A stretch of 64,000 nucleotides of DNA, from contig JAWBAI010000005.1 in the NCBI GenBank assembly GCA_038816475.1, positions 17,566 through 81,565 on the forward strand, written 5' to 3'. The position numbers and the translations under genes are program-made. How positions within the stretch are numbered: position 1 is the stretch's first letter; each line of letters opens with the position of its first letter. Origin of the DNA: Desulfurococcaceae archaeon. Lineage in GTDB: Archaea; Thermoproteota; Thermoprotei_A; Sulfolobales; Desulfurococcaceae. The notes beneath the pieces were generated by a model. It worked only from the letters and a program-made list of their open reading frames with translations. It did not search any database and had not been told where the DNA came from. Positions 46,479 to 64,000 of this stretch are shown here, piece after piece.

Positions 46479-47747
46479 CTAGCGATCTTTGCCCAAATGG
46501 GTGTGCAGGGCTTTCTCAAGATCTCTGAGGGTTGGTGATATGGTTGGAGCATCTCCTGCGATGTTCTTCAGGACCTCATGGTCCTTTAAGCCGTGCCCGG
46601 TTACTAGTACAACAACTGTTTCATCTCTATCGACTCTACCCTCGTTAACAGCCTTGATGAGTCCTGCTAGTCCAGCAGCACCACTAGGCTCTGCTAGTAT
46701 CCCCTCGAGGCTAGCCAAGAGCTTCATGGCTTCAACTATTTCACTATCGGATACTACAACTCCGTAGCCGTTGGTATCGTAGAGTGCTCGAAGCCCTGCA
46801 TCACCGTCCCACGGGTACGTGTCCTCGAGACCCGTAGCAATTGTTTGAGGAGGCTTCTCCCAGGGTCTAATATTCAGAGGGTCTTGCTTTTCGAACCAAG
46901 CTCTAACCAGTGGGTGATTACCCTCTGGTTGAACAGCGACCAGTCTTGGATACTCGTTCACAAGACCTATTTCGTTGAGGTCTCTAAACCCCTTGTAAAC
47001 GCCAGTTAGTAAACTACCAGCACCCACTGGAACGAAAACCTGACTTGGAACACTGTAGTTCAACTGCTCAGCGATCTCCATGGATATGGTCTTAGCACCT
47101 TCAACCTGGTAGGGGTTGAAGGGGCCGAAGCTAGGGCTCATGTAGAAGCCGAACTTCTCGTATGCTAGTTGCATGAGCTTTACTGTTGGGTCCTCGGCTG
47201 TTGTCCACTCTACTTTAAACACTTTTGCTCCGTAAACTAGTAGCTGTGCTATTTTACCGTAGGCTGCGAAGTGAGGTACAAAAGCGTAAACGGTTAACCC
47301 TGCTCTTGCACCGTAGGCTGCTAGCGAAGCAGCTGCATTACCACTACTAGCTGTAACAGCGTGCTTGTACCCGAAGTACTTAGCCATTGATACTGAAACA
47401 CTCATGCATCTATCCTTGAAACTACCGGTAGGATTACGCGTTTCATCCTTCAAGTAAAGGTTTCTCAAGCCAAGTTTTTCACCCAGCTTCTCAGCTTTGA
47501 CCAGTGGTGTTCCACCCTCGTAGAGTGTAACAGCGGCTTCGGGATTTGGTAGTGGTAGTAGCTCTCGGTATCTCCACATGTAGAAGAGTCTTTGCCTAAG
47601 AGTATCCTTGGACAAGTGCTCTTTTACAGCTTCATAGTCGTAGTGTACGTCTAGTCTACCGAGGTCTCTGTTAGCGCAGATCAAGGGCTTCATGTCTAGC
47701 GTGTATACTCTGCCACACCTACTACACACTAGTTTCTCAACAAACAA
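46479..47747 (-). CDS. Threonine-synthase-like PLP enzyme (fold type II)
   Basis: N-terminal CxxC..C, EGGTPL, NPTGSFKDR, ASSGNA, PVGAG, EPSGA, TGHGLK. Confidence 0.85.
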   Translation of the reverse strand: MFVEKLVCSRCGRVYTLDMKPLICANRDLGRLDVHYDYEAVKEHLSKDTLRQRLFYMWRYRELLPLPNPEAAVTLYEGGTPLVKAEKLGEKLGLRNLYLKDETRNPTGSFKDRCMSVSVSMAKYFGYKHAVTASSGNAAASLAAYGARAGLTVYAFVPHFAAYGKIAQLLVYGAKVFKVEWTTAEDPTVKLMQLAYEKFGFYMSPSFGPFNPYQVEGAKTISMEIAEQLNYSVPSQVFVPVGAGSLLTGVYKGFRDLNEIGLVNEYPRLVAVQPEGNHPLVRAWFEKQDPLNIRPWEKPPQTIATGLEDTYPWDGDAGLRALYDTNGYGVVVSDSEIVEAMKLLASLEGILAEPSGAAGLAGLIKAVNEGRVDRDETVVVLVTGHGLKDHEVLKNIAGDAPTISPTLRDLEKALHTHLGKDR

Positions 47748-47815: not shown

Positions 47816-50215
47816 CTAGTGTTTTATCCCGTGCTTCTTTATTATATAGTAGACTCTGTCCGGTGTTGCAGGTATAGTGTTTAGATCTCTGCTTGCTTTT
47901 TCAGACTTTAAGGCATGGGCTATTGCATTGACTATGGATGGTGCTATTGCAACTATGGATGGTTCTCCTAGACCCTTAGCACCGAAGGGTCCTCTTGAGT
48001 ACCCTGCTTCAACGAAGTCCACGTTTATGGTTTCGGGAACATCGGGAAGAGTTGGAATATGGTACTTGGAGAAGTTGGTGTTGTAAACGCTTCCATTGGG
48101 TGCGTGAACTATTTCCTCCATTAGTGCATAACCCATTCCCTGTATGTAGCCTCCTATTGCGTGGAACTCTGCTCCAAGTCTGTTTACAACTCTCCCGATG
48201 TCGTACACGGTTGTTGCACTGAGAACTCTCACTAAGCCTGTTTCAACGTCAACTTCAACCTCGCTGATCACTGCACCGAAGGTGTATGTGAAGTACGGTT
48301 GTCCTGTTCCAGTTTCATCGTGCCACTCGGCTGGTGGAGCACGGAAGAAACCGTACTCCTGCAGTGGAACACCTCTCCAGAATGCTTGCTCAACGAGCTC
48401 TCTCCACGTAATGGACCTCCTGGGTTCGTCTCTGCAGTATACTCGTGGAGCCTCGATCACGACCTCGCTTGGTGAACAACCAAGCATTTCTGAAGCCAAC
48501 TTGTTTAGTCTTTCTCTCAGCTTGTAGGCGGCTACCAGAACGGCGTTACCAGCCATAACCGTGACTCTGGAGGCAACGGTTGGTCCACCGTCTGGAACAG
48601 ATGATGTGTCTATGGATTCAACCTTAAAGTACCATGGTGGAACACCCAGGACCTCAGATGCTATATTCAGAAGAGACTGTATAGAGCCTTGACCCATGTC
48701 AGTTAAACCAGACCTAAGTACAATGCTTCCATCCCTCTGGATGATGATAGAGGCTGATGAGTAGTCTGCTCCCTCAGCGCCGATGCTGTTACCGTGCCAC
48801 ACGATGGCAATACCAATACCCCTCCTGAACCTGCCTTTGCTCTCCATGTAAAGTTTTCTCTTCTCATGCCAGTTACTAAGCTCTACAGCTCTTTTGATAG
48901 CATCTTCGAGGCCTACGCCGTGGTCTAAGAACTGTCCGTGGACTGTTCTATCCCCGTTTCTCAGAATGTTCTTTAGTCTTATTTCAACGGGATCTAATCC
49001 CAGCTCCTCCGCGATGAGATCCATTTGTCTCTCAACAGCGAAGTGAACTTGTGGGTTTCCAAAGCCTCTGAACGCTCCAGCTGGTACTCTGTTGGTGTAA
49101 ACAACAAGGGTGTCTATTTTTGCGTTTTTAACCCTGTAAGGACCCGTGCTGTGAACAGTTGCTCTCCAGCCCACGAAGGGACCCAGGCTTGCGTAAGCAC
49201 CAGTGTCGAGCACTATTTTAGCTTCAACAGCTAGTATTGTTCCATCTCTGCTTGCAGCGTGCTTGTACCATGCGATCATCGGATGCCGCTTGGTGTGTCC
49301 TATTATGGATTCCTCTCGCGTGTGTAATACAACGGCTGGTCTACCGGTTGCTAGTGCTGCAAGAGCAGCTTTCGCAGCTATCTCGTTTCCAACATCTTCT
49401 GCACCGCCAAACCCTCCTCCAAGAGCTGGTGCGATCACCCTTACCATGCTGAATGGTTGACCGAGAACACTTGAAACAGCGCGACGAGTATCAAAGGGGC
49501 ACTGTGTTTTTGCGTATATCGTAACTCCACCATCTGGCTCTGGTATGGCTATGGCTGCTTCTGGCTCCAAGTATGCGTGCTCCTGCATGGGAGTACTGTA
49601 AACGTTCTCCACGATAACCGTGGCTTCCTCGAAGGCTTTCTTTACGTCTCCAGTTCTGATCCTGTACCGGGATAGTACATCTGAGCCTCTTTCATCGTGT
49701 ATCAAAACATGTTCCTTCTCTCTGAGTGTTTCAAAGTCCACTATTTCCAGCGGATCAAGGTAAACCGGCAACGGCTCGTAATCAACGTGCACTCTCTCAG
49801 CTGCTTCCACAGCGTTTTCAAGAGACTCTGCAACAACGAGTGCTACTGTGTCACCTATGTACCTAACCTTTCTATCTGCTAACAATGGTTGATCGGGTAA
49901 AACGTAACCAACATCGTTGATACCCGGTATATCCCTAGCCGTTAGAACCCTCAGAACACCAGGGTACTTTACAGCTTCAGAAACATCAATGCTCTTGATC
50001 CTAGCATGAGCGTACCTTGATCTAACGCTGTAGACGAACACTGGGTTCTTGATCAGGTTCAGTAGATCCGCCGTGAATATAGGTTTACCCGTAACTTTGC
50101 TAATAGCATCCCATCTAGCAATACGCTTACCTACGTACTTGAACTCTTGCGTTGACTTGCTCCTCGTCTCGGTGAACACTCTCTCAACTATCTCCAGGTA
50201 ATCCGGTCTACTCAT
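47816..50215 (-). CDS. Xanthine dehydrogenase family molybdopterin-binding subunit
   Basis: QEHAYLEP, GGGFGG, AFRGFGNPQ, MGQG, GPTVASR, KGLGEP. Confidence 0.95.
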   Translation of the reverse strand: MSRPDYLEIVERVFTETRSKSTQEFKYVGKRIARWDAISKVTGKPIFTADLLNLIKNPVFVYSVRSRYAHARIKSIDVSEAVKYPGVLRVLTARDIPGINDVGYVLPDQPLLADRKVRYIGDTVALVVAESLENAVEAAERVHVDYEPLPVYLDPLEIVDFETLREKEHVLIHDERGSDVLSRYRIRTGDVKKAFEEATVIVENVYSTPMQEHAYLEPEAAIAIPEPDGGVTIYAKTQCPFDTRRAVSSVLGQPFSMVRVIAPALGGGFGGAEDVGNEIAAKAALAALATGRPAVVLHTREESIIGHTKRHPMIAWYKHAASRDGTILAVEAKIVLDTGAYASLGPFVGWRATVHSTGPYRVKNAKIDTLVVYTNRVPAGAFRGFGNPQVHFAVERQMDLIAEELGLDPVEIRLKNILRNGDRTVHGQFLDHGVGLEDAIKRAVELSNWHEKRKLYMESKGRFRRGIGIAIVWHGNSIGAEGADYSSASIIIQRDGSIVLRSGLTDMGQGSIQSLLNIASEVLGVPPWYFKVESIDTSSVPDGGPTVASRVTVMAGNAVLVAAYKLRERLNKLASEMLGCSPSEVVIEAPRVYCRDEPRRSITWRELVEQAFWRGVPLQEYGFFRAPPAEWHDETGTGQPYFTYTFGAVISEVEVDVETGLVRVLSATTVYDIGRVVNRLGAEFHAIGGYIQGMGYALMEEIVHAPNGSVYNTNFSKYHIPTLPDVPETINVDFVEAGYSRGPFGAKGLGEPSIVAIAPSIVNAIAHALKSEKASRDLNTIPATPDRVYYIIKKHGIKH

Positions 50216-50763
50216 TCTCTCACCTCCAGTGGTTTCATGTAGAGCTTTTCTCTAACCTCCTTCTCGTTGAAGAACACTCTTCCCTCACGCACGTACTTGG
50301 AGGCTAGTTGAGCTGCTCTCACGTAGTAATGGTAGCTACCGCATCTGCATAGAACACTACTAAGCCATTCTTTTATTTCATCCACGGAGGGATCGGGGTT
50401 TCTATCGATCAAAGCCTTCATCACCATGAGTACACCCGGTACGCAGAAACCACACTGAATTCCACCAGTCTCTAGTAGAGCTACTTGAACAGCGTGAAGC
50501 ATACCGCTAGGTGCAATACCCTCGAGGGTTACAACCTCAGCTCCATCAAGCGTAGCTGTGAGAAGTAGGCAGGAGTTTCTCGGTTCTCCATTCACTAGAA
50601 CAATGCAGGTTCCACACTCTCCTCTACCACAACCTTCCTTGACACTCGTAAAGCCAAGTCTATACCTTAGCGTGTTTACCAAACGCTCGTTTGCAGGAAC
50701 AACAACGGTGTACTCTCTTCCGTTAACAACAAGACGCACGTTGTGCGTCTTCAAGCAGAACAC
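50212..50763 (-). CDS. Xanthine dehydrogenase family 2x[2Fe-2S] subunit
   Basis: GCGRGECGTC, QCGFC, LCRCGSY. Confidence 0.95.
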   Translation of the reverse strand: MFCLKTHNVRLVVNGREYTVVVPANERLVNTLRYRLGFTSVKEGCGRGECGTCIVLVNGEPRNSCLLLTATLDGAEVVTLEGIAPSGMLHAVQVALLETGGIQCGFCVPGVLMVMKALIDRNPDPSVDEIKEWLSSVLCRCGSYHYYVRAAQLASKYVREGRVFFNEKEVREKLYMKPLEVRE

Positions 50764-51650
50764 CCCCTTTCAACTCTCTCCTTCACTACACGTAGTCCAT
50801 CCTTCAACGCAACCTTGGACATTTCTAACCTGTACTCGGCTGTTGTCCACCAGTCGGTAATCCTCTTCATTACTCTTGGAAGAACATCCTCGGAGGCTTT
50901 CTCGACGAGCTCCTCTGTGTAGACTTTGCCTTTAAGAAAGTCCTCGATCTCTCTAATTCTCGCGGGAATGCGCTTATCCTTAACCATATCATACGCTACT
51001 CTAACATCTCTCATGACTCCATCCACAAAGGTTGCGTAAACAGCGCAGGTTACTACTCCAGCGATGAGCAGGCTTCTTCTGTCGAATTTCACGAAAGCAC
51101 TGCTTGTTTTATCCGGGGGGTAGTCAAAGGTGATCTCCGTGATGAGCTCGTGTGGTTTTAGAGCTGTTACCCTGTTATCTAGTAGGAACTCTTCAAGGGA
51201 TAGTTCTCTTTCACCATCAACGCTTGCAAGTTTAACACGGGCATCGTGCACGAGGAGCAGTGGAATGTAATCACTGTACTGAGTCGCGGTTGCGATGTTA
51301 CCTCCGATCGTAGCGGAGAACCTTATAGCTAGTGTTCCAAACTTTCTCCAGACATCCACGAAACCAGCGAACCTGACGTCTCTGTGAAGTATGCTCTTGC
51401 TCAAGTCGTAAACTCTCGTCAAGGCACCAATTCTCACTCTTCCATTCTCTACTTTCACGTAGGATAGCTCTCTTCTGAGAGGTGAAAGATCCAGTAGGAA
51501 CCTTGGTGTAGGTATCTTCCTGTCTCTGATCAGAAGTAGAAGCTCTGTTCCACCAGCTAGAGGCTTAACATCGGGGGAGTTCTTTGCAAGAAACTCAAGA
51601 GCTTCTGCTAAGGATCTAGGGCGGTATATATCAAAGCTATGAATGAACAA
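50751..51650 (-). CDS. Xanthine dehydrogenase family FAD-binding subunit
   Basis: AGGTEL, IGALT, ATIGGNI, AEYR. Confidence 0.95.
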   Translation of the reverse strand: MFIHSFDIYRPRSLAEALEFLAKNSPDVKPLAGGTELLLLIRDRKIPTPRFLLDLSPLRRELSYVKVENGRVRIGALTRVYDLSKSILHRDVRFAGFVDVWRKFGTLAIRFSATIGGNIATATQYSDYIPLLLVHDARVKLASVDGERELSLEEFLLDNRVTALKPHELITEITFDYPPDKTSSAFVKFDRRSLLIAGVVTCAVYATFVDGVMRDVRVAYDMVKDKRIPARIREIEDFLKGKVYTEELVEKASEDVLPRVMKRITDWWTTAEYRLEMSKVALKDGLRVVKERVERGCSA

Positions 51651-51790: not shown

Positions 51791-52804
51791 ATGAGCTTGA
51801 AGGTGTGCAACAGCCTAATTGATTGCATAGGGAAAACACCCGTGATAAGAATCACCAGAGTTCTTCCACCTCGCATCAAAGCCGAGATCTGGGGTAAAAT
51901 GGAGTTCCTCAACCCCTCCGGTAGCGTGAAAGATAGAATCGCAGTGTACATGATTAAAAGAGCTCTTGAGAAGGGTGAGCTGAAACCAGGTATGACTCTC
52001 GTAGTACCCACGACAGGTAACACGGGTATAGCTTTCGCATCGGTTGGTGCATCACTTGGTTTCAAAGTGCTAATAGTTATCCCTGAGGAAATGAGCGCTG
52101 AGAGATTCATGCTCATGAAGCTTCTCGGTGCAGACTTCTACTTTACACCCGGTGGTGAAGTAGACGCGGGCGGAGCTCTAGAGGTGGCAAAGAGACTAGT
52201 TGCCGAGAACCCTGATAAGTACTACTTGTTTGACCAGTGGAGTGACGAAGCTAACGTTGAAGCGCACTACGAGACCACTGGGAAAGAGATAATTGAACAA
52301 CTGGGTTGCCCTAAAGCCTTTGTAGCTAACGTTGGAACCGGTGGAACCCTTGTAGGTGTTGCCAAGAGGCTCAAAGAGGAGTGCAGAGACGTGATCGTCG
52401 TAGGAGCTGAGCCTGCTGAGTGCGCAGTAGCTACGTCCTGGTTTAAGAAAGGTGTAGTTGAAGCATGTGGTAGACACGAAGTGGAAGGTGTTGGCGATGG
52501 CTTTGTACCCGACATTATTGCCAGGTACAAGCATCTTCTCGACGACTTCGTTACAGTCTCAAGCGAAGAAGCTATACTGATGACCAGGGAGTTGGCCAGG
52601 AAAGAGGGGTTACCAGTTGGAATAAGTAGCGGTGCAAACGTTTCAGCAGCGATCAAAGTGGCCGAGCAGTACGGACTTAAAGAAGATGACAAAGTTGTCA
52701 CTATTCTACCGGATTACGCAGCAAGGTACTTCAGTACAAGGCTCTTCAGAAAGAAAAAAGAAGTAGCGAGCAGACGGATAATACTAGAGGAGCTAGACCT
52801 ATAA
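51791..52804 (+). CDS. Cysteine synthase family PLP enzyme
   Basis: IGKTP, NPSGSVKDR, PTTGNTG, GTGGT, EGVG, GISSGA, PD..RYFS. Confidence 0.9.
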   Translation: MSLKVCNSLIDCIGKTPVIRITRVLPPRIKAEIWGKMEFLNPSGSVKDRIAVYMIKRALEKGELKPGMTLVVPTTGNTGIAFASVGASLGFKVLIVIPEEMSAERFMLMKLLGADFYFTPGGEVDAGGALEVAKRLVAENPDKYYLFDQWSDEANVEAHYETTGKEIIEQLGCPKAFVANVGTGGTLVGVAKRLKEECRDVIVVGAEPAECAVATSWFKKGVVEACGRHEVEGVGDGFVPDIIARYKHLLDDFVTVSSEEAILMTRELARKEGLPVGISSGANVSAAIKVAEQYGLKEDDKVVTILPDYAARYFSTRLFRKKKEVASRRIILEELDL

Positions 52805-52805
52805 T

Positions 52806-54641
52806 CTACTTTTTATACACCTCCTCAACGAGTGGAATAAGTCTACCGCTTTGAACATCTACAAGACCTCTATCAGTGATCCTAACCTCGGGTATTACCG
52901 GTAGTGAAACCAAGCTTAGTGTCATGAAGAACGACTCAAAGTGAACATTGTAGTGGCTTCTCATGTACTCGAGCATCCTTGTGTACTTCTCGTATACTAC
53001 CTCGGGTTCCTCAATGCTCATTAAGCCCGCTAACCTCAGTTCCAACTCTGCTACGATCTTACCGTTGTCCACGATGACTATACCACCCTGTATTCTTTCA
53101 ACCTCTCTCACAGCAGTATCCATGTCTCTCGGGTTCCAGCCCGCTACTACGAGGTTGTGAGTGTCGTGTGCTATGGTTTGAGCTATTGCACCAGCCTTAA
53201 AGCTTAACCCCTTGATGAACCCTGTTGAGAATCTACCACTACCTGTGTGTCTGTCGGCTACAACAACGTACATGATGTCTTTTTCGTAGTTCGTCTTCAA
53301 GATGCCGTTTTCAACCTCGAGTTCCTCGACAACCTTCTTGGTTAACGTGGAGCCTGGTTTAACCTCGATAACGTTTACTCTGGCATACCCGTGTTCAACG
53401 GACTCCTTTAATCTAGGAGTATATGAGATGACCTCTGGTAGTTTTCCAAGCTTCACGGTTTGAAGTACGCGCGGAGGGTACTCCGGCTTCTTGAACTCTT
53501 TCTGCAGTGTGTTCTTGTAGTATATGAGTTCTCCATTTGCTATCACTGTTTCTGGTTGTATTCTCTCGATTCTGCTCGTTAATACTATATCCGCTATGCG
53601 ACCAGGCGCAATTAAACCGATGTGATCTTCTAGGTGAAGCCTAATTGCCGGGTACAGGGTAGCGTACTTAACCGCTTTCACAGGGTCTACTCCGAGCTCA
53701 ATAGCACGGTTGATGATCCTATCCATGTGTCCTTTCGTGAAAAGGTCATAAACGTTCAGATCATCACTGACGAAGACGCATAGATCGCAAGCATTTTCCC
53801 TCACGATGGAAACTAGAGCTTCAAGATCTCTCCAAGCACTACCCTCTCTGATATAAATCCACATTCCTCTCCTCAGTTTTTCAACAGCTTCATCGATCGC
53901 TGTTGTTTCGTGATCGCTAATTATACCCGCTGATATGTACGCGTCAAGATGTGGACCCTTTAACTGCGGTGCATGACCATCTATGATCAAGCCCTTGTTC
54001 TTAGCCGCCTCTACTTTCCTTAAAACCTCTTCGGATGCGTGTACAACGCTGATGAAATCCATTACCTCGCCTAATCCACAAACGTTCTCACGTTCCACGA
54101 GCTTTGATACAGTTGAGGAGTCGATTACATGTGGTGCTGTTTCAAGCCCTAGGTACGGATCAGTTGCTGGAACGCAGCTCGGGACTTCCACCAGGAACTT
54201 TAGTGGAAGATCCTTCGTAAACGATATGAAGATCTCTACGCCTTCGGCTCCAAGAACGTTCGCTATCTCGTGTGGATCCGCTACAACAGTTGTTGTTCCA
54301 TGCTTAAGTGCTATTTTTGCGAAGCCTACTGGGTTTAGCAATGAGGATTCAACGTGAATGTGGAGATCTATGAAGCCCGGTAATGCGTACTTACCTTCGC
54401 AGTCAACTACTCGTGTTCTACTGGAGATGTACCTGGAGATGTCCTTTATTCTACCAATCCTGGCGATCCTCTTGCCCTTAATAACAACACTATAGTTCTC
54501 CAGTACCTCCTCGGTGGTTGGAACAACTATGTTTACGTTTGTTAAAACCATGTCAGCAGGAATTGCACCACGAGAGGCAAGAATGAGTTCTCTTCGTTCA
54601 CTCAAACTGTATTTTTCTATTAGAGTATTCAACGACTTCAC
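52806..54641 (-). CDS. ade: Adenine deaminase
   Basis: HIHVESS, DPHEIANV, LGEVMD, DGHAP, SDHE, REGS, AHDTHN, LSLVSLPVIPE. Confidence 0.96.
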   Translation of the reverse strand: MKSLNTLIEKYSLSERRELILASRGAIPADMVLTNVNIVVPTTEEVLENYSVVIKGKRIARIGRIKDISRYISSRTRVVDCEGKYALPGFIDLHIHVESSLLNPVGFAKIALKHGTTTVVADPHEIANVLGAEGVEIFISFTKDLPLKFLVEVPSCVPATDPYLGLETAPHVIDSSTVSKLVERENVCGLGEVMDFISVVHASEEVLRKVEAAKNKGLIIDGHAPQLKGPHLDAYISAGIISDHETTAIDEAVEKLRRGMWIYIREGSAWRDLEALVSIVRENACDLCVFVSDDLNVYDLFTKGHMDRIINRAIELGVDPVKAVKYATLYPAIRLHLEDHIGLIAPGRIADIVLTSRIERIQPETVIANGELIYYKNTLQKEFKKPEYPPRVLQTVKLGKLPEVISYTPRLKESVEHGYARVNVIEVKPGSTLTKKVVEELEVENGILKTNYEKDIMYVVVADRHTGSGRFSTGFIKGLSFKAGAIAQTIAHDTHNLVVAGWNPRDMDTAVREVERIQGGIVIVDNGKIVAELELRLAGLMSIEEPEVVYEKYTRMLEYMRSHYNVHFESFFMTLSLVSLPVIPEVRITDRGLVDVQSGRLIPLVEEVYKK

Positions 54642-54691
54642 CTGTGGGTTTTAACCATAGGTTTAAAATCGCGGGGTTATATATGTAGACG

Positions 54692-56113
54692 TTGAAACCC
54701 GGTGATCTATCCGTGGCTGATATATACGTTAGGGGTGGATGGGTGCTAACGCTGGATCCTCGGAGAAGGATCATCAGGAACGGGGCAGTAGCCATCAGTG
54801 ATGGTGTCATCGTGGACGTTGGTAAGAAGGATGAGCTTGATGCAAGGTACAGGTACTACTCGGACATTGTAATAAACACAGAGAAGGATATTGTAATGCC
54901 GGGATTAATCAACACGCACGTTCACCTTGTTCAAGGCTTACTTAGGCACTGTGCAGACTACTTACCACTAATAAGCTGGCTTAAAAACAGAGTATGGCCA
55001 CTACAGGGGAACTACAAGCCCGAGGAAGCTCTCGCCTCAGCAAAGCTAGTTCTACTAGAGATGATAAAGACGGGGGCTACAACGTTCCTTGAAACAGGCC
55101 TTGTGGGTAGGTACGGTCCTGACAACATAATAGAGTTCGTCTACGAGGCTGGACTGCGAGGAGTCTTCGCTAGGCACGTAATGGACTTAAGGGGGTATGC
55201 TCTCGAGGAGGAGGCTATTCACAAGGGTTTAATCGAGTCAGGTGATGCTAGCTTCAACGATACACTTAGACTCTACTACAAGTACCACGGGAAAGGCAAC
55301 AGAGTGTGGATCTGGTTCGGGCCGAGAACACCCGGTGCTGTGAGCGTAGAGCTGTACAGGAGAATCTCCGAGAAAGCAAGAGAGCTCAACACAGGTATAA
55401 CAATGCATCTTGCCGAGGTAAAAGAAGACGTAGAGTACACCGTGCGATTGTTCGGTAAGAAACCAGTAGAGTTTGCTAACTGGGTTGGATTAACCGGTAG
55501 AAACGTTGTTCTCGTCCATGTTGTCTGGGTTGATGACAACGAGATCAAGCTACTCGCGGAGACGAAGACTAATGTAAGCCACAACCCATCTAGCAACATG
55601 AAGCTTGGCAGTGGTGCAGCAAGAGTATCAGACATGATCAGGAGCGGTGTCAACGTTGCGCTGGGAACAGATGGTGGTCCAAGCAACAACACCTACGATC
55701 TCATGAGGGAGATGAAGCATGCCGCGCTCTTGCAGTACGTAACGAAGTTGAACCCGAGAGCTGTCAGAGCCGAGGAGGTTGTTGAAATGGCAACAATAAA
55801 CGGTGCTCGTGCTCTCATGATAGACCACTTGGTTGGTAGCATAGAGGTTGGTAAGAGAGCTGACATCATAGTTCTCGACTACTGGGTTCCACACCTGCAT
55901 CCACTTGTAAACCCGGTTTCACACCTGGTCTTTGCAGCCTCAGGCTCAGACGTTAAGCACGTGATAGTTGATGGTAAGTTGATAATGTTTAACAGGAGAG
56001 TTCTAACGCTAAACGAAGAGGAGATCATAGAGGAAGCTGAGAAGAGAGCCTTTGAGCTCTACAGTAGAACAGGGATCTGCTTGGAGCCTGATACGGTTTG
56101 GCCTATCACCTAG
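54692..56113 (+). CDS. Amidohydrolase, TRZ/ATZ (MTA/SAH-, guanine-, 8-oxoguanine-deaminase-like) family
   Basis: NTHVH.Q, MHLAE, LVHVV, HNPSSNMKL, GTDG. Confidence 0.9.
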   Translation: MKPGDLSVADIYVRGGWVLTLDPRRRIIRNGAVAISDGVIVDVGKKDELDARYRYYSDIVINTEKDIVMPGLINTHVHLVQGLLRHCADYLPLISWLKNRVWPLQGNYKPEEALASAKLVLLEMIKTGATTFLETGLVGRYGPDNIIEFVYEAGLRGVFARHVMDLRGYALEEEAIHKGLIESGDASFNDTLRLYYKYHGKGNRVWIWFGPRTPGAVSVELYRRISEKARELNTGITMHLAEVKEDVEYTVRLFGKKPVEFANWVGLTGRNVVLVHVVWVDDNEIKLLAETKTNVSHNPSSNMKLGSGAARVSDMIRSGVNVALGTDGGPSNNTYDLMREMKHAALLQYVTKLNPRAVRAEEVVEMATINGARALMIDHLVGSIEVGKRADIIVLDYWVPHLHPLVNPVSHLVFAASGSDVKHVIVDGKLIMFNRRVLTLNEEEIIEEAEKRAFELYSRTGICLEPDTVWPIT

Positions 56114-56373
56114 CCGCCCATCTCAGGTGTTATAAACGTGACGCGATCACCATCCTTGAGCTTAGTTGACGGATCAATTGTTGGAACACCATTGATGTAC
56201 GTAACGAAAACGTAATGCCCCTCGATAAACCTTCTGAACAAGTCTGGGTGAATTTCATCACCGAGTTTTTTAAGCAAGTCGAGTACAGTGCTTTCCTCGG
56301 GTAGTTCAACTTCAACGAGTGATCTCCTAGCGATTTCACTCGCTCTACCTAGGAAAACAACAGTGACCTTCAA
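56110..56373 (-). CDS. MoaD/ThiS/SAMP ubiquitin-like sulfur carrier
   Basis: Beta-grasp pattern, LKDGDRVTFITPEMGG with C-terminal GG; likely start TTG 56373 after GGTGG RBS. Confidence 0.9.
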   Translation of the reverse strand: MKVTVVFLGRASEIARRSLVEVELPEESTVLDLLKKLGDEIHPDLFRRFIEGHYVFVTYINGVPTIDPSTKLKDGDRVTFITPEMGG

Positions 56374-56454
56374 TGTTAAACCACCGGGAACACTTGGAAC
56401 AAGCTTATAACTCGACCCCTGTCTATCTATACTATTAGTCAAGGGGTGAATTAA

Positions 56455-57519
56455 ATGCCCGCTTTGAGAAACCTTGTTCGTGAACTATCAGGTAAAGATC
56501 TGATATCTACACTCGAGTGGAGTGACGAAGAAATCGACATTGCTCTCAAGCTATCAGCTGAGTTCAAGAACATAGCACACTACTACGGTACAGAGGCTAT
56601 TCCCAAGGTTCTAGCAGGAAAAGTATTCTACATGCTGTTCTTCGCTCCATCAACGAGAACTAGAGCGGCTTTCGAAACAGGAATGTATCTACTGGGTGGA
56701 CACGCGGCATACATAGATGCAACAACAACGAGGTTAGCTGTTGGGAAAGAGGAGAAGGTTGGAGAGGATATTAGAGACGTAGCTGCAATGTACGATGTCT
56801 ATGGGCATGGACTGGGGATAAGGATCCTCGATAAGGCTATAGACTACTTGTACGGAGTTGGTAACAAGTACATCAGGGAAATGGCTAGGGTTGCAAAGAT
56901 CCCCGTTATAAACATGGCAGATGACATGTTTCATCCAACCCAGGGATTGGCAGACATATTCACATTCATCGAGAAATTCAAGAACCCGCGTGGCAAGAAG
57001 TATGTTATTATGTGGGCTTACAGCCCGGAGATCAGGGGCTGGTGCAGTGTTCAGGAGGACATGGTCCTGTTTCCGAGATTCGGCGTGGATGTGGTAATAG
57101 CTAGACCACCGGGTTTTGACCTTGACCCCAAGCTCGTTGAGAAGGCTAGAGAAATCGCCAAGGAGCAGGGCGCTGTTTTCGAAGTTACAGACAACCTGAG
57201 GGAAGCACTAGCTGGAGCTCACGCTGTTTTCCCAAGAAACTGGGCTTCACCAACTCTGGTTCAGCTCGGCTACAGCAAGTTCAAGGACGAGGAGCTCAAG
57301 ATATACGAGAAGTACAAGAACTGGAAGGTTACAAGAGAACTAATGGACCTCATGGACAAGCATGGTGTACTAATGCATGTTCTACCCATATTCAGAGGTT
57401 ACGAAGCAGACGAAGATGTAATAGACGACCCAAAGAGGTCGATCATATATCAGCAAGCGGAGAACGGTCTTTGGACTAAAATGGCTGTTCTAGCCCTTAC
57501 AATGTACGGTGTTAAGTAG
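56455..57519 (+). CDS. Carbamoyltransferase, YgeW/knotted transcarbamylase-like (paralog 1)
   Basis: STRT, HPTQ, MWAYSP, HVLP, QAENG. Confidence 0.88.
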   Translation: MPALRNLVRELSGKDLISTLEWSDEEIDIALKLSAEFKNIAHYYGTEAIPKVLAGKVFYMLFFAPSTRTRAAFETGMYLLGGHAAYIDATTTRLAVGKEEKVGEDIRDVAAMYDVYGHGLGIRILDKAIDYLYGVGNKYIREMARVAKIPVINMADDMFHPTQGLADIFTFIEKFKNPRGKKYVIMWAYSPEIRGWCSVQEDMVLFPRFGVDVVIARPPGFDLDPKLVEKAREIAKEQGAVFEVTDNLREALAGAHAVFPRNWASPTLVQLGYSKFKDEELKIYEKYKNWKVTRELMDLMDKHGVLMHVLPIFRGYEADEDVIDDPKRSIIYQQAENGLWTKMAVLALTMYGVK

Positions 57520-57648
57520 AAACTCAAAGACCCACTGAGTCTCGGCAAAATAGAACATTTTTTTATCAAATCTCTCCTCTACGAAGCAATTTATGAAGGA
57601 GTTAGGTAAAGGGTATACTAGTAAAAACTGATTAGGAATGCGGAGTTA

Positions 57649-58857
57649 CTACGTGAACTTGATGGCTCTTGTTGGACATACTGTTGTGCAGAGACCGCAA
57701 CCGTAGCACTTGGTAAGGTCTACAACGGCTACTCTTCTACCCTGTTTCCCTGTTTCAAAGTGTATAGCGTTGTAGTTGCAAACCTGTTGGCAGAAGCCGC
57801 AGCCTATGCATCTCTTCTCGTCTACTCTGGGGGGTAGAGCCCACGTTCTGAGAGGTTCTAGTTTAAGGTACTTTAGGCTCATACCCTTGATGTCCAGGAT
57901 GCTACTGTATCCGTGACGTTTAAGCCAATCCTCTAGTTCTCTGAGTATGCGCTTGAAAACACCTGGTCCCTCTATGAGCGCAGCTGTGCATATTTGTACT
58001 GCTGACGCGCCAACCATGAAGTACTCAACTACGTCTACACCTCTGAAGATTCCTCCAACACCGATAACCGGTAGTTTCGTGTTCTTAGCGATCTCGGCTA
58101 CGATTGCTAACGCTAAGGGCTTTAGCGCTGGGCCACTCATCCATCCGTAACCACCGGGTCCTCCGACTATGGGTAATCCTGTTTCAACGTCTATGCTTAA
58201 AGCTGGACCAATGGTGTTTGTTGCAACTAGTCCATCTACTCCCACGGATTCAAGCTCTTTAACCAGCTCGGGTATGTTCGGAGTGAACGGACTCAGCTTG
58301 GCGAAGATTGGAATGGAAACGGATTCCCTGAGAGCCTTAGCAGCTTCAACTATGGGTTTGTAGTCTCTACCAATGTAGTGTGTGGAAAACTCAATCGCAT
58401 CTACACCAGCTTTCTCCACCTTGGGGCCCAGTAACGCGAGCTCTTCTGGTTTGTAACCTATGCTTGCGAACAGTGCAACACCGTGTTCTCTGCAGTACTT
58501 GACCATAGCAGGGTACTCGCGCTCGAGGTAGTGCTCAGCTGGAATATCACTCCACAACTCGGCGTTCAGAACAGCGTAAATGAACCTTGAGTTACCAGCA
58601 TCCACGGAAACAACCTGAACTTCACCTGGTTTCACTGTTCTGAGAACGTGGAACCTTCCAAGCCCTCGGTCTACAACACCCATCGTTGGTCTGGGAACAA
58701 TAGCTGGAACCACGCTAATAGTCTTAGCAACAACTCCACCCACATCGTTATCCACCAGTAGCTTCACGGATTCGAAGTCGCGAGAAATAGGACAAGCAGC
58801 GTTCATCAACGGATTCTTCAACCTGAAACCTGCGATTTCGACTGATAGATCAACCAC
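57649..58857 (-). CDS. Dihydropyrimidine/dihydroorotate dehydrogenase-like FMN protein with C-terminal 2x[4Fe-4S] domain (PreA-like)
   Basis: NPLMNAA, AKT, KLSP, TNT, SGPALKP, GASAVQICT; CIGCGFCQQVC and CYGCGLCTTVCP. Confidence 0.88.
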   Translation of the reverse strand: MVDLSVEIAGFRLKNPLMNAACPISRDFESVKLLVDNDVGGVVAKTISVVPAIVPRPTMGVVDRGLGRFHVLRTVKPGEVQVVSVDAGNSRFIYAVLNAELWSDIPAEHYLEREYPAMVKYCREHGVALFASIGYKPEELALLGPKVEKAGVDAIEFSTHYIGRDYKPIVEAAKALRESVSIPIFAKLSPFTPNIPELVKELESVGVDGLVATNTIGPALSIDVETGLPIVGGPGGYGWMSGPALKPLALAIVAEIAKNTKLPVIGVGGIFRGVDVVEYFMVGASAVQICTAALIEGPGVFKRILRELEDWLKRHGYSSILDIKGMSLKYLKLEPLRTWALPPRVDEKRCIGCGFCQQVCNYNAIHFETGKQGRRVAVVDLTKCYGCGLCTTVCPTRAIKFT

Positions 58858-58915
58858 GAGTTACACCTTTGTAGGCGTTGAATACAATTCATCGACAGGG
58901 ATATAAACTTTGTGT

Positions 58916-60301
58916 TTATGCTTTCAAATAGTCGATCTGGTATCTACCACTGCTTAGCAGCTTATCCCAGAGCCTCTCAACAACCCTGTGGACGTACTCT
59001 ACAGCCTTCTCCTCGTCAACCCCCAGAACTCTTCTATCCCTCATGACCACTCTTCCGTTGACGACAACGGTTTTCACATCCTTACCACTAACGGTGTTAA
59101 CGAGGTGAGCGTAAACAGTTTTCTCGTTCACCGGTGTCGGAGGATGCTCGGGTTTCAACACAACGATATCGGCTTTTTTACCCGGCTCTAAGGAGCCTAG
59201 CTCGTTCTCCACGTGGAACATTTTCGCAACGTTGACTGTTGCCATTTCTACAACCTGCATGAGTGTTATAACCCTTGGATCCCTGTTCCAGACCTTGTGT
59301 ATCAGGTACGCAGCTCTCATGTTCTCGAAGTGGTCAAAAACATAGCCATCGTTTCCTAGTCCAACGTTGATACCCATTCTCAACATCTCTGGAACTCTTG
59401 CAACACCAACAGCGTTCAACATGTTGCTCATGGGGTTGTGAGCCACGTGAGATCCTGTTCTCCTGATCAACTCTAGTTCGTCCATGGTTGTGTTCACCGT
59501 GTGTACAAGGATCACGTCATCTCCTAGGAAGTTCAGCTTGTACATTCTCTCAACGGGTCTTAAACCGTATCTTTCAATGTTGTGGTATACGTCCACTAAT
59601 CCCTCCTCGGTGTGAATAGCAAGCAAAGCCTTGTACTTGTTTGCTAGCTCACGAGCCTTGATGAAGAGGTCGTCAGATACGGTAAAGCTAGCGTGGAGGT
59701 ATATTGCTCCCTTCACGAGCTTAGAGGGATCAAAGTTGTTCTTGAGAATAAACCTCTCGTTTTCTTTTAAACCTCTAACTCCCTCCTCTAAGCTGCGCCT
59801 CTGGGTTGCCTCAAAGGATAGGTATCCTCTTATACCAACCTCGTTGACGGCTTTCTCAATGTAGTCCAAAACACCCTCTATGGAGTTTGGAGCACTTATG
59901 TTATCGAAGAAGAAGGTGACTCCCGATTTAACGAAGAGGAGACTACCCAGTAGTGCCGATGCATACGCATCTTCGTGCGTTAGTAGTACATCAAGAGCCC
60001 ACCATATTCTCTGAAGATTCTGCTGAAAATCGGTGGGTGCTTCGATCTTCGAAAACCAGGGACTCCCAGTGATTAAAAGTCCGTAGAAGTGCGTGTGAGC
60101 ACACATAAATCCCGGTGTTACAATGCTTTTTCTAGCATCAATGTACTCTTCTGCTATGTACTTGTCCTTACCATCACCCACACCAACATCAACTATTCTC
60201 TCACCTGAAACAGCAACGTAGCCGTTTCCGATGACCCTTCTCTCGCTGTTCATTGTTACAACAAGTCCATTTGAAACAAGGATGTCGACTCTTTCTCTCA
60301 A
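58916..60301 (-). CDS. SsnA-like amidohydrolase
   Basis: HTHFY...DFQQNLQRIWWALD (SsnA-type), HASFTVSD, HTEEG, HNPMSNMLNAVG, GNDG. Confidence 0.85.
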   Translation of the reverse strand: MRERVDILVSNGLVVTMNSERRVIGNGYVAVSGERIVDVGVGDGKDKYIAEEYIDARKSIVTPGFMCAHTHFYGLLITGSPWFSKIEAPTDFQQNLQRIWWALDVLLTHEDAYASALLGSLLFVKSGVTFFFDNISAPNSIEGVLDYIEKAVNEVGIRGYLSFEATQRRSLEEGVRGLKENERFILKNNFDPSKLVKGAIYLHASFTVSDDLFIKARELANKYKALLAIHTEEGLVDVYHNIERYGLRPVERMYKLNFLGDDVILVHTVNTTMDELELIRRTGSHVAHNPMSNMLNAVGVARVPEMLRMGINVGLGNDGYVFDHFENMRAAYLIHKVWNRDPRVITLMQVVEMATVNVAKMFHVENELGSLEPGKKADIVVLKPEHPPTPVNEKTVYAHLVNTVSGKDVKTVVVNGRVVMRDRRVLGVDEEKAVEYVHRVVERLWDKLLSSGRYQIDYLKA

Positions 60302-60422
60302 GAACTCACCCTTAGGTTATGTTTACTCCGAATTGCGTATATATATTGTTTAACTCTGATGCCAGGTGAGGAAGAAGAGTTGAGAGGAATATCTAATGAA
60401 AAAGTGATTGCTAGTAGATGTT

Positions 60423-61496
60423 TTAATCTCCCATTACCATTGCCATCACAGCTTTCTGAACATGTAGTCTGTTCTCTGCTTCCTCGAAGTAGAGGCTCTT
60501 CTCGTACTTGTCCAGCACTTCGTCTGTAACTTCTTGACCACGGTCAGCTGGACCACAGTGCATGTAGTATGGTTTCCCGGCTTTCTCCAGCCTTTCGACT
60601 GTTACTATCCAGTCCTTGAACTTGTCCTGGTAAGCTTTGGCTCCCTCTTTATCCACGAAGGTGTTGTAAGGTGGGAAGAACCCCTTTGGGCTCCAGGCTT
60701 TCGGGTATACTAGGAAAGCTCCTTCGAACGCTTCATCCATGTTGTGTAGTATTTTGAACTCGCTACCCCAGTACTCGGAGTACTTCTTTATCCTCTGCAC
60801 TACTTCGTCCATTAGCTCGAAGCCGGGTGGATGAGCTAGGTAAACGTCTGCTCCCAGTAATGCAAACATTGAGGCAACATCCTGTGGTACAGCAAGTGGC
60901 TTTAATCCTCCACTGTAAGCGTAGCTAACAACAATTTTCTTACCTCTGAGGTCCTTGGGCCAGCCAAGTACCTCCATAGCGGCCATTGCGTCAGCAAGTG
61001 CTTGGAAGGGATGCCATATGTCATCCTCCATGTTTAAAACCGGAACCGATGACCACTTGGCGAACTCTTCGATAACCCTGTGACCTCGACCAATTATCCA
61101 CTTGGCGGCATCTCCGTATATTCTTATAGCTATACCGTTTCCATATCTGCTTAGAACTCTGGCAACATCGCTTATAGCCTCTGTTTGATACGGGATCATG
61201 TCCTCGGGTAACGTGGGTGTGTAAACCTGGTCTGGGCTTATGTATATGGCTTGTCCACCAAGCTGGTACATACCTGTTTGAAAACTGTTCCTTGTTCTAA
61301 GGCTCTTATTGTAGAATATGAGGTACAGTGTTTTACCATCAAGCCAGTTTACCTTCCTAATACCTCGGTGGTACATCTCCTTGAGTTCTCTAGCAGCCTG
61401 CAGAACCTTTAGGATCGTATCAAGATCGTATTCGTAGTTGGAAATCCAGTGCTTACCGTGGAGATAACCCACAAACCAGGGTTTATCTCTGGGCAT
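60423..61496 (-). CDS. Carbamoyltransferase, YgeW/knotted transcarbamylase-like (paralog 2)
   Basis: SLRT, HPFQ, SYAYSGGLKPLAVPQ, YPKAWSP, HCGPADRG, EAENR. Confidence 0.88.
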   Translation of the reverse strand: MPRDKPWFVGYLHGKHWISNYEYDLDTILKVLQAARELKEMYHRGIRKVNWLDGKTLYLIFYNKSLRTRNSFQTGMYQLGGQAIYISPDQVYTPTLPEDMIPYQTEAISDVARVLSRYGNGIAIRIYGDAAKWIIGRGHRVIEEFAKWSSVPVLNMEDDIWHPFQALADAMAAMEVLGWPKDLRGKKIVVSYAYSGGLKPLAVPQDVASMFALLGADVYLAHPPGFELMDEVVQRIKKYSEYWGSEFKILHNMDEAFEGAFLVYPKAWSPKGFFPPYNTFVDKEGAKAYQDKFKDWIVTVERLEKAGKPYYMHCGPADRGQEVTDEVLDKYEKSLYFEEAENRLHVQKAVMAMVMGD

Positions 61497-61580
61497 ACAC
61501 TAACACCAGCTATCACATCATGTTAAGGTACTTTGAGTTTAAAAATGCGATTCTCGGGACCTGCTGCTTGTTCACGTTGA

Positions 61581-61844
61581 CTAGGAAAGGTTTACGACTT
61601 CTATACCCATGTTCTCGAGTAACTGCTTGATAAGCGCGTAGTCCAGCTCACTAAGGCATTTATCAAGTTTAATTTCTGCTTGCAATCCACCCTCCTCTAC
61701 CACGGGTGATCCACTGAAGAAAACAACAGGTTTATACCCCTTCTCCATGAGGAGATCGCTGAGTTCTCTGACCACGTAGGTTACTGCAACACTACTCCAT
61801 GCTCTCTTCAAAACTATTGAGTTTCTACTAACCTCAGCACGCAT
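61581..61844 (-). CDS. Small hypothetical protein within the purine cluster
   Basis: 87-aa ORF with ATG, purine-rich leader and upstream TATA-like element. Confidence 0.6.
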   Translation of the reverse strand: MRAEVSRNSIVLKRAWSSVAVTYVVRELSDLLMEKGYKPVVFFSGSPVVEEGGLQAEIKLDKCLSELDYALIKQLLENMGIEVVNLS

Positions 61845-62146: not shown

Positions 62147-63475
62147 TTACTTGCGAAGCAGAATTGAACCAATGTATACTCCTGAGCCGGGTTTACCCAC
62201 GAGTTCACCCTTCTCAATAACAAGGTTTCCACGAACGATCGCGTACCTAGGATGACCGTAGACCTTCAAACCCTCCCACGGTGTCCAATCCACCTTGTGG
62301 TGGTGTGTTCTGTGCGATATTGTTCTCGGGTTTCTAACATCCAGGACAACCAGGTCTGCTTGACTACCGGGTGCTATTGCACCCAACGTAGGGTACAAGC
62401 CGAGTAAGCGTGCGGGATTCTCCGAGAAGACCTTGATGAAGGTTTCAAAGCTTATTCTACGCTCCATAACACCGTAGGTATATAGAAACGGGCCCATCAC
62501 CTCGAGGTTTGGTATACCACTCCAAGCACTCCACACATCCTTTTCCTTCATCTCCCTTGGGCATGGTGCGTTGTCACTAGCGTAGATATCGACAACTCCT
62601 CTCGCGATTCCTCTCCACAGGGCTTCTCTATCCTCGCTTGTTTTAAGCGTTGGAGCCATCTTCAGGTACGTTCCGTACTTAACACTATCCTCCCTTGTGA
62701 AGTAGAGGTAGTGCGGGCATGTTTCAGCTGTGATCCCAGTACTCAGCCTCTTCAGGTACTCAACAGCTTGAACACCCTCTTTGCTCGAGAGATGTGCTAT
62801 GTGAACCCTTGCTCCTACATCAGCAGCTGCTAATCCTACTCTCATAATAGCCGATGCTTCAGCGTAACCAGTTCTGCTCATGTGGTAAGCTAGTATGCTG
62901 TTGGAGCTTCTATGCTTCTCCTCGTAGTAGTCTACGAGGCCATCGTCTTCGGCGTGAACGATGAGAACAGCGTTGTTGTCCCTTACCTTCTCCATGATCC
63001 GGGGTACAGCTGATTCGTCCACTTTGAAGGGTCTGCAGGTGAACATCTTGAAGGTTTTAACACCGTGCTTTGCGAGAAGGTCAATGGACGCAATGTTGTC
63101 TCCTCTGAGGAATCCACCGGTTACACCGTAGTTAATGTAGGATTTCCTAGAGGCTTCGTTTATCTTGTGGTAGAGTGCACCGAGGTTGTCAACGTGGACT
63201 CTCAGAGGCATATCCACGATGGTTGTTATGCAACCGTAGAGAGCAGCAAGACTACCTGATTCCCAATCCTCGTTAACCGCGTACTCTGGGTCGTAGACAT
63301 GAGCGTGAACATCTATTCCACCCGGTACAACGGGGAGACCTTCTCCGTCAACCACGACATCCGCAGGCTTCTCTAGCTTAGATACGGACTTGATGTACCC
63401 GTCCTCAACCAGGATAGATCCCTCCACGAGCTCTCCATTGATTGGTATCCTAACGTTTCTTAGGAGAAGCGTCAT
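62147..63475 (-). CDS. Cyclic amidohydrolase (hydantoinase/dihydropyrimidinase/allantoinase-like, HyuA-like)
   Basis: DVHAH, DMP, TFKMF (carbamylated Lys), HAED, HIAHLSS, ETCPHYL, SDNAP, WTPWEG. Confidence 0.9.
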   Translation of the reverse strand: MTLLLRNVRIPINGELVEGSILVEDGYIKSVSKLEKPADVVVDGEGLPVVPGGIDVHAHVYDPEYAVNEDWESGSLAALYGCITTIVDMPLRVHVDNLGALYHKINEASRKSYINYGVTGGFLRGDNIASIDLLAKHGVKTFKMFTCRPFKVDESAVPRIMEKVRDNNAVLIVHAEDDGLVDYYEEKHRSSNSILAYHMSRTGYAEASAIMRVGLAAADVGARVHIAHLSSKEGVQAVEYLKRLSTGITAETCPHYLYFTREDSVKYGTYLKMAPTLKTSEDREALWRGIARGVVDIYASDNAPCPREMKEKDVWSAWSGIPNLEVMGPFLYTYGVMERRISFETFIKVFSENPARLLGLYPTLGAIAPGSQADLVVLDVRNPRTISHRTHHHKVDWTPWEGLKVYGHPRYAIVRGNLVIEKGELVGKPGSGVYIGSILLRK

Positions 63476-63581: not shown

Positions 63582-63998
63582 CTACTTTAATCCGGGTGGA
63601 ACGTAGATCACGGGTACTATTGCAAGACCTGCTGCGTGGTCTTGCTCTAGCTCATCTAGAGCGTTGTACTTGACAGCTAGTTCTAGTACGTCAATGTAGT
63701 AGAGAAATGGTGTTCCACTCTCGCACAGCACTCTCCAGTACCTTTTTCTATCCTTCTTGATTCTAGCTTTACGTTCACCGACAATCCGCTGTAGTTCACC
63801 AATGTTTCTCACTGCGAGGGGTTCAAGTACTTCGTCAACGCACTGAAGGTAAAAGTCGAGTACCGTGTAGTCCGCTATTCTCATGTGTAGCTTCCAGTCG
63901 TTAATACTCATCTCCCTGCAGACGTGAACAGTTGATGCAGAGTACTTTTCGAGGTAACCTCTGTACGTGTTACCTACTACAATACCCGGTGATACGTA
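63582..63998 (-). CDS. Hypothetical protein, 5' end beyond window edge
   Basis: The frame of ORF 63582-63911 stays open to the window end (YVSPGIVVGNTYRGYLEK...). Confidence 0.7.
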   Translation of the reverse strand, partial: YVSPGIVVGNTYRGYLEKYSASTVHVCREMSINDWKLHMRIADYTVLDFYLQCVDEVLEPLAVRNIGELQRIVGERKARIKKDRKRYWRVLCESGTPFLYYIDVLELAVKYNALDELEQDHAAGLAIVPVIYVPPGLK

Positions 63999-64000
63999 CG

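Follow-up and report, generated by a model that had tools for sequence, protein, structure and literature searches.

This work concerns a 64,000-nucleotide stretch of the genome of a Desulfurococcaceae archaeon (hereafter the window) that encodes two different members of the carbamoyltransferase family, CT1 (carbamoyltransferase paralog 1; 56455..57519, plus strand; 354 aa) and CT2 (carbamoyltransferase paralog 2; 60423..61496, minus strand; 357 aa), in the middle of purine-catabolic genes. The window corresponds to positions 17566-81565 of contig C5 of genome G000 (18 contigs, 1.15 Mb, 92% complete), and its right edge is the end of this contig. Our analysis revealed the gene content of this region, the conservation of both proteins, their co-inheritance and the synteny of their genes in relatives; the substrates of the two enzymes, the order of the steps and the ATP yield are what we infer from these observations. 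CT1 and CT2 are tentatively regarded as two different, catalytically competent catabolic carbamoyltransferases that make up the lower half of the reductive urate/2,8-dioxopurine pathway in an archaeal variant, a proposal that falls just short of an even chance. The leading reading of their function, possible and held with some reserve, is a double phosphorolysis: CT1 and CT2 would each take one ureido group of 2,3-diureidopropionate in turn, giving two carbamoyl phosphates and 2 ATP per purine.

An earlier note on this DNA, made from the sequence alone, had described two divergent carbamoyltransferases that carry the loop of YgeW rather than the SMG loop of ornithine carbamoyltransferases (OTCases), and the comparison of the two proteins bears this out. 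Both are complete two-domain enzymes (PF02729 and PF00185 in each; AlphaFold2 (AF2) models with a pLDDT of 92 for CT1 and 94.5 for CT2) sharing 36% identity over 354 columns. All the active-site motifs quoted in that note are found in the translations: STRT, HPTQ and HVLP with the loop MWAYSPEIRG in CT1, and SLRT, HPFQ and HCGP with the loop SYAYSGGLKPLAVPQ in CT2. Both proteins match the SxRT and HPxQ motifs of YgeW, HCGP of CT2 has a Gly in place of the Leu of the YgeW motif HxLP, and neither SMG nor DxxxSMG occurs in either translation. The loop that the note gives for YgeW is correct (the aligned loop of E. coli K-12 YgeW, L009, is WAYSPSYGKPLSVPQ); that of the N-acetylornithine carbamoyltransferase (AOTCase) of X. 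campestris differs at the same place (TWTYHPKPLNTAVAN). A proline-rich loop and an extended 120's loop, the signature looked for in knotted enzymes, are both visible in the alignment, the former with a single Pro in CT1.

The residues S-x-R-T-R, the following Arg, HPxQ and H-x-x-P are invariant in all the sequences of the CT1 clade (116 sequences, i.e., the best 120 matches minus four dropped on length) and of the CT2 clade (120 sequences). By contrast, the residues of the second-substrate pocket differ between the two clades while being fixed inside each of them. E157, K199, K266 and D318 of CT2 (aligned with Q160, K203, K270 and D334 of YgeW) correspond to the carboxylate anchors of the knotted enzymes, whereas CT1 has A155, R194, R261 and F/L/M313 at the same positions. 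Judging from these alignments, CT1 and CT2 both look catalytic. With both active sites intact and their conserved pockets different, two substrates seem more plausible than redundancy or a dead subunit.

The designation "YgeW-like" that had been given to both enzymes is right only for the loop and for the broad clade to which they belong; the YgeW models TIGR03316 and NF005538 are missed widely (122.7 and 129.5 bits for CT1, 139.5 and 143 bits for CT2; cut-offs of 500 and 453). Whole-protein scores of CT1 and CT2 reach no curated NCBIfam cut-off: the highest ones, all sub-threshold, are obtained with the models of AOTCase (NF003384; 191.5 bits for CT1 and 230 for CT2; cut-off 288) and OTCase (TIGR00658; 192.6 and 193 bits; cut-off 280.85), and the putrescine carbamoyltransferase (PTCase) model gives 164 bits for CT1 and 149-150 bits for CT2 for a cut-off of 500. 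The nearest solved sequences and folds are those of the AOTCase of X. campestris, then of the OTCase of P. furiosus, then of YgeW; for the AF2 model of CT2, the nearest solved fold is AOTCase (TM-score normalised to the query, TMq, of 0.86-0.87). Fold searches did not separate knotted from unknotted relatives, AOTCase, OTCase and a YgeW homolog alike giving TMq of 0.80-0.87. In trees whose representatives were labelled by NCBIfam models, OTCases and AOTCases each form their own clade, CT1 and CT2 lying outside the AOTCase clade (support of 100). CT1 (support of 98), CT2 (100) and YgeW (100, with a long stem) fall together in a clade of 48 rows, otherwise without labels, whose sister group is AOTCase (SH-aLRT of 89). 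YgeW is placed with CT2 by FastTree (support of 0.93) and nearer to CT1 by IQ-TREE, on a stem of 1.1-1.4, so that the mutual order of CT1, CT2 and YgeW differs between the two methods. A search with E. coli YgeW returned only sequences that are 85-92% identical to it and therefore left this long branch unbroken. CT1 and CT2 are not sister clades, which implies that the duplication is old. Taken as a whole, these comparisons suggest that both enzymes resemble YgeW in their working but stand outside the YgeW family as currently defined.

The same results bear on the possibility that one or both proteins belong to arginine or agmatine catabolism, as plain ornithine or putrescine carbamoyltransferases. 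The name "ornithine carbamoyltransferase" that databases give to their relatives, the first rank of the OTCase and AOTCase models and the presence of a carbamate kinase would fit this explanation, but it is very improbable given the distance of the scores from the OTCase and PTCase cut-offs, the lack of the DxxxSMG motif, a context made of purine genes throughout and the presence, in relatives, of a separate canonical OTC-like gene besides the pair. Furthermore, neither ArgG, nor arginine deiminase (ADI), nor a canonical OTCase was found in G000, in which the third member of the carbamoyltransferase family is PyrB; no arginine pathway that would need an OTCase was found in this genome.

CT1 and CT2 are inherited together. 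Among 121 genomes of the order, 23 carry an ortholog of CT1 (at least 63% identity) and all 23 also carry a CT2-like gene, leaving 98 genomes without the pair. Among 301 genomes of the phylum, CT1 was found in 27, CT2 in 28 and both in 27 (274 without the pair), the only exception being G329, whose genome is 86% complete. The cultured relative Desulfurococcus amylolyticus also carries both genes. A search with a CT1 profile retrieved 80 loci from Desulfurococcales, Korarchaeia-type Thermoproteota, Bathyarchaeia, Caldarchaeales, Nitrososphaerales, Hadarchaeota, Asgard archaea, Baldrarchaeota and Chloroflexota. The neighbours of CT1 in the 42 loci that have 5 kb or more on each flank are a ThrC-like pyridoxal phosphate (PLP)-dependent enzyme (n = 31), CT2 (n = 24), carbamate kinase (CK; n = 24), a TRZ/ATZ deaminase (n = 15), a CysK-like PLP enzyme (n = 13), SsnA (n = 12), UacX (n = 8), a xanthine-dehydrogenase-type Mo hydroxylase (XDH; n = 8) and HyuA (n = 7); peptidases of the M20 family and YgeX were found in none of these 42 loci. 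The ThrC-like gene is thus the one that most often adjoins CT1, and the CysK-like gene lies beside CT2 in many loci. G047, G113 and G003, as well as loci L038-L043, share the order CT1-CT2-CK-SsnA-UacX-(CysK-like)-ThrC-like, CK directly following CT2 in these three genomes. This distribution suggests that the module made of CT1, CT2, carbamate kinase and a PLP lyase is an old one, with representatives in Thermoproteota, Hadarchaeota, Asgard archaea and Chloroflexota.

Strict co-occurrence, frequent adjacency and the short gap between the two genes in many loci (1-260 nt) could also indicate that CT1 and CT2 form one hetero-oligomer, either as mixed trimers or with one subunit acting as a regulator or scaffold, that would carry out a single phosphorolysis; enzymes of this family are trimers whose active sites are shared between subunits (PMC4581275). 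However, all the catalytic residues are kept in both proteins without exception, their pockets differ and they are not sister clades. In addition, the distance between them ranges from 26 to about 640 kb in the complete genomes G053, G096, G110, G032 and G043, and PMC4581275 reports all other family members except aspartate carbamoyltransferase (ATCase) and some OTCases as homotrimeric. This explanation is therefore considered quite improbable.

The part of the window that extends from 35 to 64 kb is, by its gene content, a nucleic-acid and purine catabolic island, and all the enzyme types of the reductive pathway from Mo hydroxylase to carbamate kinase are found within 45436-63475. On the minus strand, it encodes (i) the carbamate kinase (45436..46401; TIGR00746, 379 bits, above the cut-off of 358), which is the only one found in G000 (single tblastn match), (ii) the ThrC-like PLP enzyme (46479..47747), a candidate functional stand-in for YgeX (22% identity), (iii) the three subunits of XDH (47816..51650; Mo subunit at 47816-50215, Fe-S subunit at 50212-50763 and FAD subunit at 50751-51650), (iv) an adenine deaminase (52806..54641; TIGR01178, 514 bits, above the cut-off of 472.5), (v) a UacX/PreA-like flavoprotein with a DHO_dh domain and two 4Fe-4S motifs, presumed to be the ring reductase (57649..58857; NF006183, 189 bits for a cut-off of 335), (vi) an SsnA-like amidohydrolase (58916..60301; best family NF005540, 365 bits for a cut-off of 444; 30% identity to E. 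coli SsnA), and (vii) a HyuA-like cyclic amidohydrolase of the hydantoinase/dihydropyrimidinase/dihydroorotase (DHOase) type (62147..63475). On the plus strand are the CysK/SbnA-like PLP enzyme (51791..52804), identified by family matches, and the TRZ/ATZ-type aminohydrolase (54692..56113), which is the best G000 match of E. coli GuaD and probably a deaminase of guanine or another purine. The SsnA-like, HyuA-like and UacX-like proteins have these families as their top matches, yet all three remain under the equivalog cut-offs. In relatives, the UacX-like gene is syntenic with the SsnA-like gene. Orthologs of HyuA-like and of the XDH Mo subunit, though dispersed, were each found in the five pair genomes checked, whereas five pair-less genomes checked have only a HyuA paralog of 30-31% identity. 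This enzyme-type-by-enzyme-type match suggests that the island is an archaeal version of the reductive urate/2,8-dioxopurine pathway in its UacX (clostridial) form.

In the pathway that we propose, purines would be deaminated and hydroxylated by the adenine deaminase, the TRZ/ATZ deaminase and XDH, the ring would then be reduced by the UacX-like protein and opened by the SsnA-like and HyuA-like enzymes, leading to 2,3-diureidopropionate. The known pathway passes through this intermediate, which has exactly two ureido groups, one of which is used by YgeW and YqeA to produce ATP (PMC12507026; Liu et al. preprint). In the archaeal variant, each carbamoyltransferase would strip one ureido group with phosphate, one after the other. 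CT2 is tentatively assigned to the 3-ureido group of the N-acylated substrate because its pocket is of the AOTCase/YgeW type; CT1 may then act on the 2-ureido group, freeing the alpha-amino group needed by a PLP enzyme. Both carbamoyl phosphates would be used by the single carbamate kinase to produce 2 ATP, and diaminopropionate would be converted to pyruvate and ammonia by the ThrC-like or the CysK-like PLP enzyme. The lyase is probably the ThrC-like protein, since its gene is the most tightly linked to CT1, and this irreversible step could pull the uphill ones that precede it.

The absence of YgeY, the M20 peptidase relative that acts on the remaining ureido group in bacteria according to the earlier note, was initially claimed for the window and can be extended to the assembly of G000, which is 92% complete. 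The best TIGR03526 match of G000 reaches 122.5 bits for a cut-off of 321.5, and NF009555 has no match at E <= 1e-60; YgeX was likewise found neither with TIGR01747 nor by tblastn. PF01546 matches are confined to contigs C8, C3 and C11, with none on C5: they include two M20 genes, one DapE-type (NF006400, 572 bits) and one PRK13983-type, and the match on C11 is an M42 peptidase. The last 127 nt of C5 are the reverse complement of an end of C11, and joining the two contigs restores an intact 245-aa open reading frame (ORF) that matches an ORF of G053 over its full length. A junction of C5 with C8, which carries the DapE-type M20, was rejected for want of any sequence overlap. The 20 kb that follow the window across the C5-C11 overlap, where a YgeY gene would have refuted the earlier proposal, contain no M20 gene; they encode a radical SAM protein, proteins of 299 and 526 aa of no known family, a DUF488 protein, a winged helix-turn-helix protein, an M42 aminopeptidase, a protease similar to HtrA and proteins of glycine cleavage. 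Furthermore, the six pair genomes assembled in one contig (G021, G032, G043, G053, G096 and G110) are devoid of any YgeY-like gene. Together with the contig junction, this indicates that the absence of YgeY is not an assembly artefact.

However, the anticorrelation between the pair and ygeY that had been expected was not found. YgeY-like M20 genes are present in 13 of the 121 genomes of the order (182-256 bits with TIGR03526 and 251-350 bits with NF009555), namely in 12 of the 23 pair genomes versus one of the 98 others. In the phylum sample, they show no association with the pair (4 of 27 pair genomes versus 44 of 274 others) and none exceeds the cut-off. Nor does the pair exclude ygeY: G003 has both carbamoyltransferases and a YgeY-family gene above the NF009555 cut-off (349.5-349.8 bits versus 321) that is located downstream of the ThrC-like gene of the CT1-CT2-CK operon, at a distance of about 200 nt.

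The enrichment of YgeY-like genes in pair genomes of the order and the gene of G003 thus weigh against a double phosphorolysis, as do several other points. Of 10 pair genomes from the same family, 7 have a DapE-type M20 gene near the HyuA-like gene, at 1.8-1.9 kb in G096, G089, G032 and G043 and at 7.2-7.4 kb in G053, G110 and G072. G000 itself encodes, beside MoeA, a Nit1-like CN_hydrolase, i.e., an unassigned amidase of the nitrilase superfamily. These M20 and CN_hydrolase findings mean that the second step could be hydrolytic. In addition, carbamoyl phosphate is heat-labile, and in G000 the carbamate kinase gene is 10-14 kb away from those of CT1 and CT2. Finally, the phosphorolysis of a ureido group is described, for YgeW, as thermodynamically uphill (PMC12507026).

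The hydrolase candidates lend weight to an alternative that is nevertheless rather unlikely, according to which only one of the carbamoyltransferases would act on diureidopropionate, as bacterial YgeW does, with a yield of 1 ATP per purine. A hydrolase whose gene lies elsewhere (a YgeY-like or DapE-type M20 enzyme or the nitrilase-family amidase) would take off the second ureido group, or this group would be lost as urea by PLP-dependent beta-elimination from albizziin, and the other carbamoyltransferase would use a different ureide, such as ureidomethylhydantoin, 5-ureidodihydrouracil or N-carbamoyl-beta-alanine derived from pyrimidines. Besides the candidate hydrolases, this would account for the conservation in the cluster of two PLP enzymes where one lyase would do, and for the resemblance of the UacX-like and HyuA-like proteins to pyrimidine-degrading enzymes (family models; PMC4016543). 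However, the DapE-type M20 is found in 69 of the 121 genomes of the order and CN_hydrolase in 48, both being present in the pair-less genome G010, in which the DapE-type gene even has the same downstream neighbours. The YgeY-like copies of the f3 genomes adjoin the cysteinyl-tRNA synthetase (CysRS) gene and one of them is found in the pair-less G085, which tempers their co-occurrence with the pair; those of pair-less Thermoproteota have unrelated contexts in the seven cases examined. No M20 gene was found within 10 kb of CT1 in the 80 loci. That CT1, CT2 and CK are strictly co-inherited and adjacent also speaks in favour of a single pathway. The double phosphorolysis remains our leading, though tentative, reading.

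Several other features of the island and of its surroundings are worth recording. At 35308-44419, a phosphopentomutase-like PGM, a four-gene PnrA/Bmp nucleoside ABC transporter and a 687-aa protein with an SNase domain are encoded beside the purine genes, and extracellular nucleic acid may be the starting material of the island. An EamA-family transporter gene (44500..45372, minus strand) adjoins that of carbamate kinase; in G053 and G096, its counterpart is flanked by CK and SsnA-like. The ThrC-like protein passes the "threonine synthase" equivalog NF006050 (332 bits versus a cut-off of 303). Another ThrC paralog of G000 is encoded on C3 and the conserved context of the one in the island is the purine module, the name "threonine synthase" being probably wrong for this subfamily. 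A MoaD/ThiS-like small protein with a C-terminal GG (56110..56442, minus strand; family match) has its listed start 12 nt from that of CT1, on the opposite strand; since its MoaD domain begins only at residue 26-28, its true start is probably further in. In one-contig G032, the HyuA-like gene (L111:5087-6443) is split into two ORFs of 299 and 168 aa, so that this gene may be frameshifted or broken. A second XDH-type Mo subunit (46-49% identity) and a second hydantoinase-like protein (30-33%) have genes that lie next to each other in pair genomes (G113:C35:1877-5618; G053:C1:1236340-1256793), and the second hydantoinase-like gene of G000 is located at C7:66044-67363. They may constitute a parallel module for N-heterocycles.

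Near CT2, several relatives carry a canonical OTC-like gene (about 315 aa) at 1-2 kb (L012:9829-10785 in G053; L019:12169-13113 in G096), which was not found in the 92% complete G000. An 87-aa ORF of no known family (61581..61844, minus strand) separates CT2 from HyuA-like in the window, which ends with the C-terminal part (63582..64000, minus strand) of the 245-aa ORF, also of no known family, that runs on into C11. After the C5-C11 join, this ORF, a 259-aa radical SAM protein and the 299-aa familyless protein are encoded upstream of HyuA-like on the same strand (L118:17679-19998). In G053 and G096, the same pair of a radical SAM protein and a protein of about 295 aa, accompanied by a DUF711 protein, is encoded between CT2 and CK. 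These genes may form an accessory set that has so far not been recognised as part of the cluster.

It was not until 2025 that the anaerobic urate pathway was solved, and it was described as bacterial. Literature searches, which did not cover supplementary files, found neither an archaeal version of this pathway nor twin transferases within it in print. The words "Archaea" and "paralog" do not appear in the available text of the two primary papers (PMC12507026; Liu et al. preprint), supplements not covered. PMC12625717 was rejected as a description of this module, as its available text concerns allFGHK. If the proposed function is right, the ATP obtained per purine would be doubled and the pathway would extend to several archaeal phyla, in which case nucleobase fermentation would be widespread as a source of energy where habitats are anoxic and hot. 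It would also add two new specificities to a well-studied enzyme family, CT1, as an N-carbamoyl-alpha-amino-acid phosphorylase that falls outside the ATCase branch, representing a new class of specificity, and the database name "ornithine carbamoyltransferase" of the relatives of CT1 and CT2 would have to be corrected.

Among known systems, the closest to the island is the reductive uric acid/2,8-dioxopurine pathway found in E. coli, C. sporogenes and C. difficile, which consists of XdhD or XdhAC, YgfK or UacX, SsnA, HyuA, YgeW and YqeA, YgeY and YgeX. Both systems have a clustered Mo hydroxylase, a UacX-type reductase, SsnA-like and HyuA-like enzymes, a carbamoyltransferase and a carbamate kinase (PMC12507026; Liu et al. 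preprint). However, the island is archaeal, whereas the available text of a commentary (PMC12990295) calls the pathway restricted to bacteria. It also encodes two carbamoyltransferases, neither of which is YgeW by family models, its SsnA-like and HyuA-like proteins are under the family cut-offs, and ThrC-like and CysK-like PLP enzymes take the place of YgeY and YgeX, which were not found in G000. With YgeW (the knotted YTCase), CT1 and CT2 share the carbamoyl phosphate-binding motifs, the AYS..KPL.VPQ loop (CT2 above all), the extended 120's loop, a carbamate-kinase neighbourhood and the 48-row clade, but they have only 30-33% identity with it and are about 40 residues shorter, the terminal extensions and the 240's-loop insert being specific to YgeW in the alignment (criteria of PMC4581275, Shi et al. 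2015).

The AOTCase of X. campestris (PDB 3kzc and related entries) is the best solved match of both proteins by sequence and fold, and has in common with CT2 S-(L/M)-RTR, the carboxylate anchors Glu and Lys, and the stretch AENRLHVQKA. However, CT1 and CT2 are below the NF003384 cut-off and outside its clade, lack any arginine-biosynthesis context and have another proline-rich loop sequence. The diaminopropionate carbamoyltransferase (DPTCase) of zwittermicin and viomycin biosynthesis interconverts diaminopropionate plus carbamoyl phosphate and beta-ureidoalanine (albizziin), the very pair that we propose for one step, and is therefore a precedent for a family member acting on diaminopropionate (PMC4581275). 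Unlike CT1 and CT2, it is anabolic, unknotted and from the OTCase branch, and its (T/S)RWQTTG and H-D-L-P motifs (PMC4581275) are absent from them. Lastly, the ureidoglycine transcarbamylase of Rubrobacter xylanophilus acts with a carbamate kinase, a purine-derived ureide being phosphorolysed in a CK-coupled manner (PMC4016543). These Rubrobacter and Nocardioides enzymes are members of the ATCase branch and part of the allantoate route, and the available text of PMC4016543 proposes no double phosphorolysis for them. Nevertheless, the pseudo-ATCase of Nocardioides, with an adjacent ygeW homolog beside xdhABC, provides a printed precedent for two members of the family side by side (PMC4016543).

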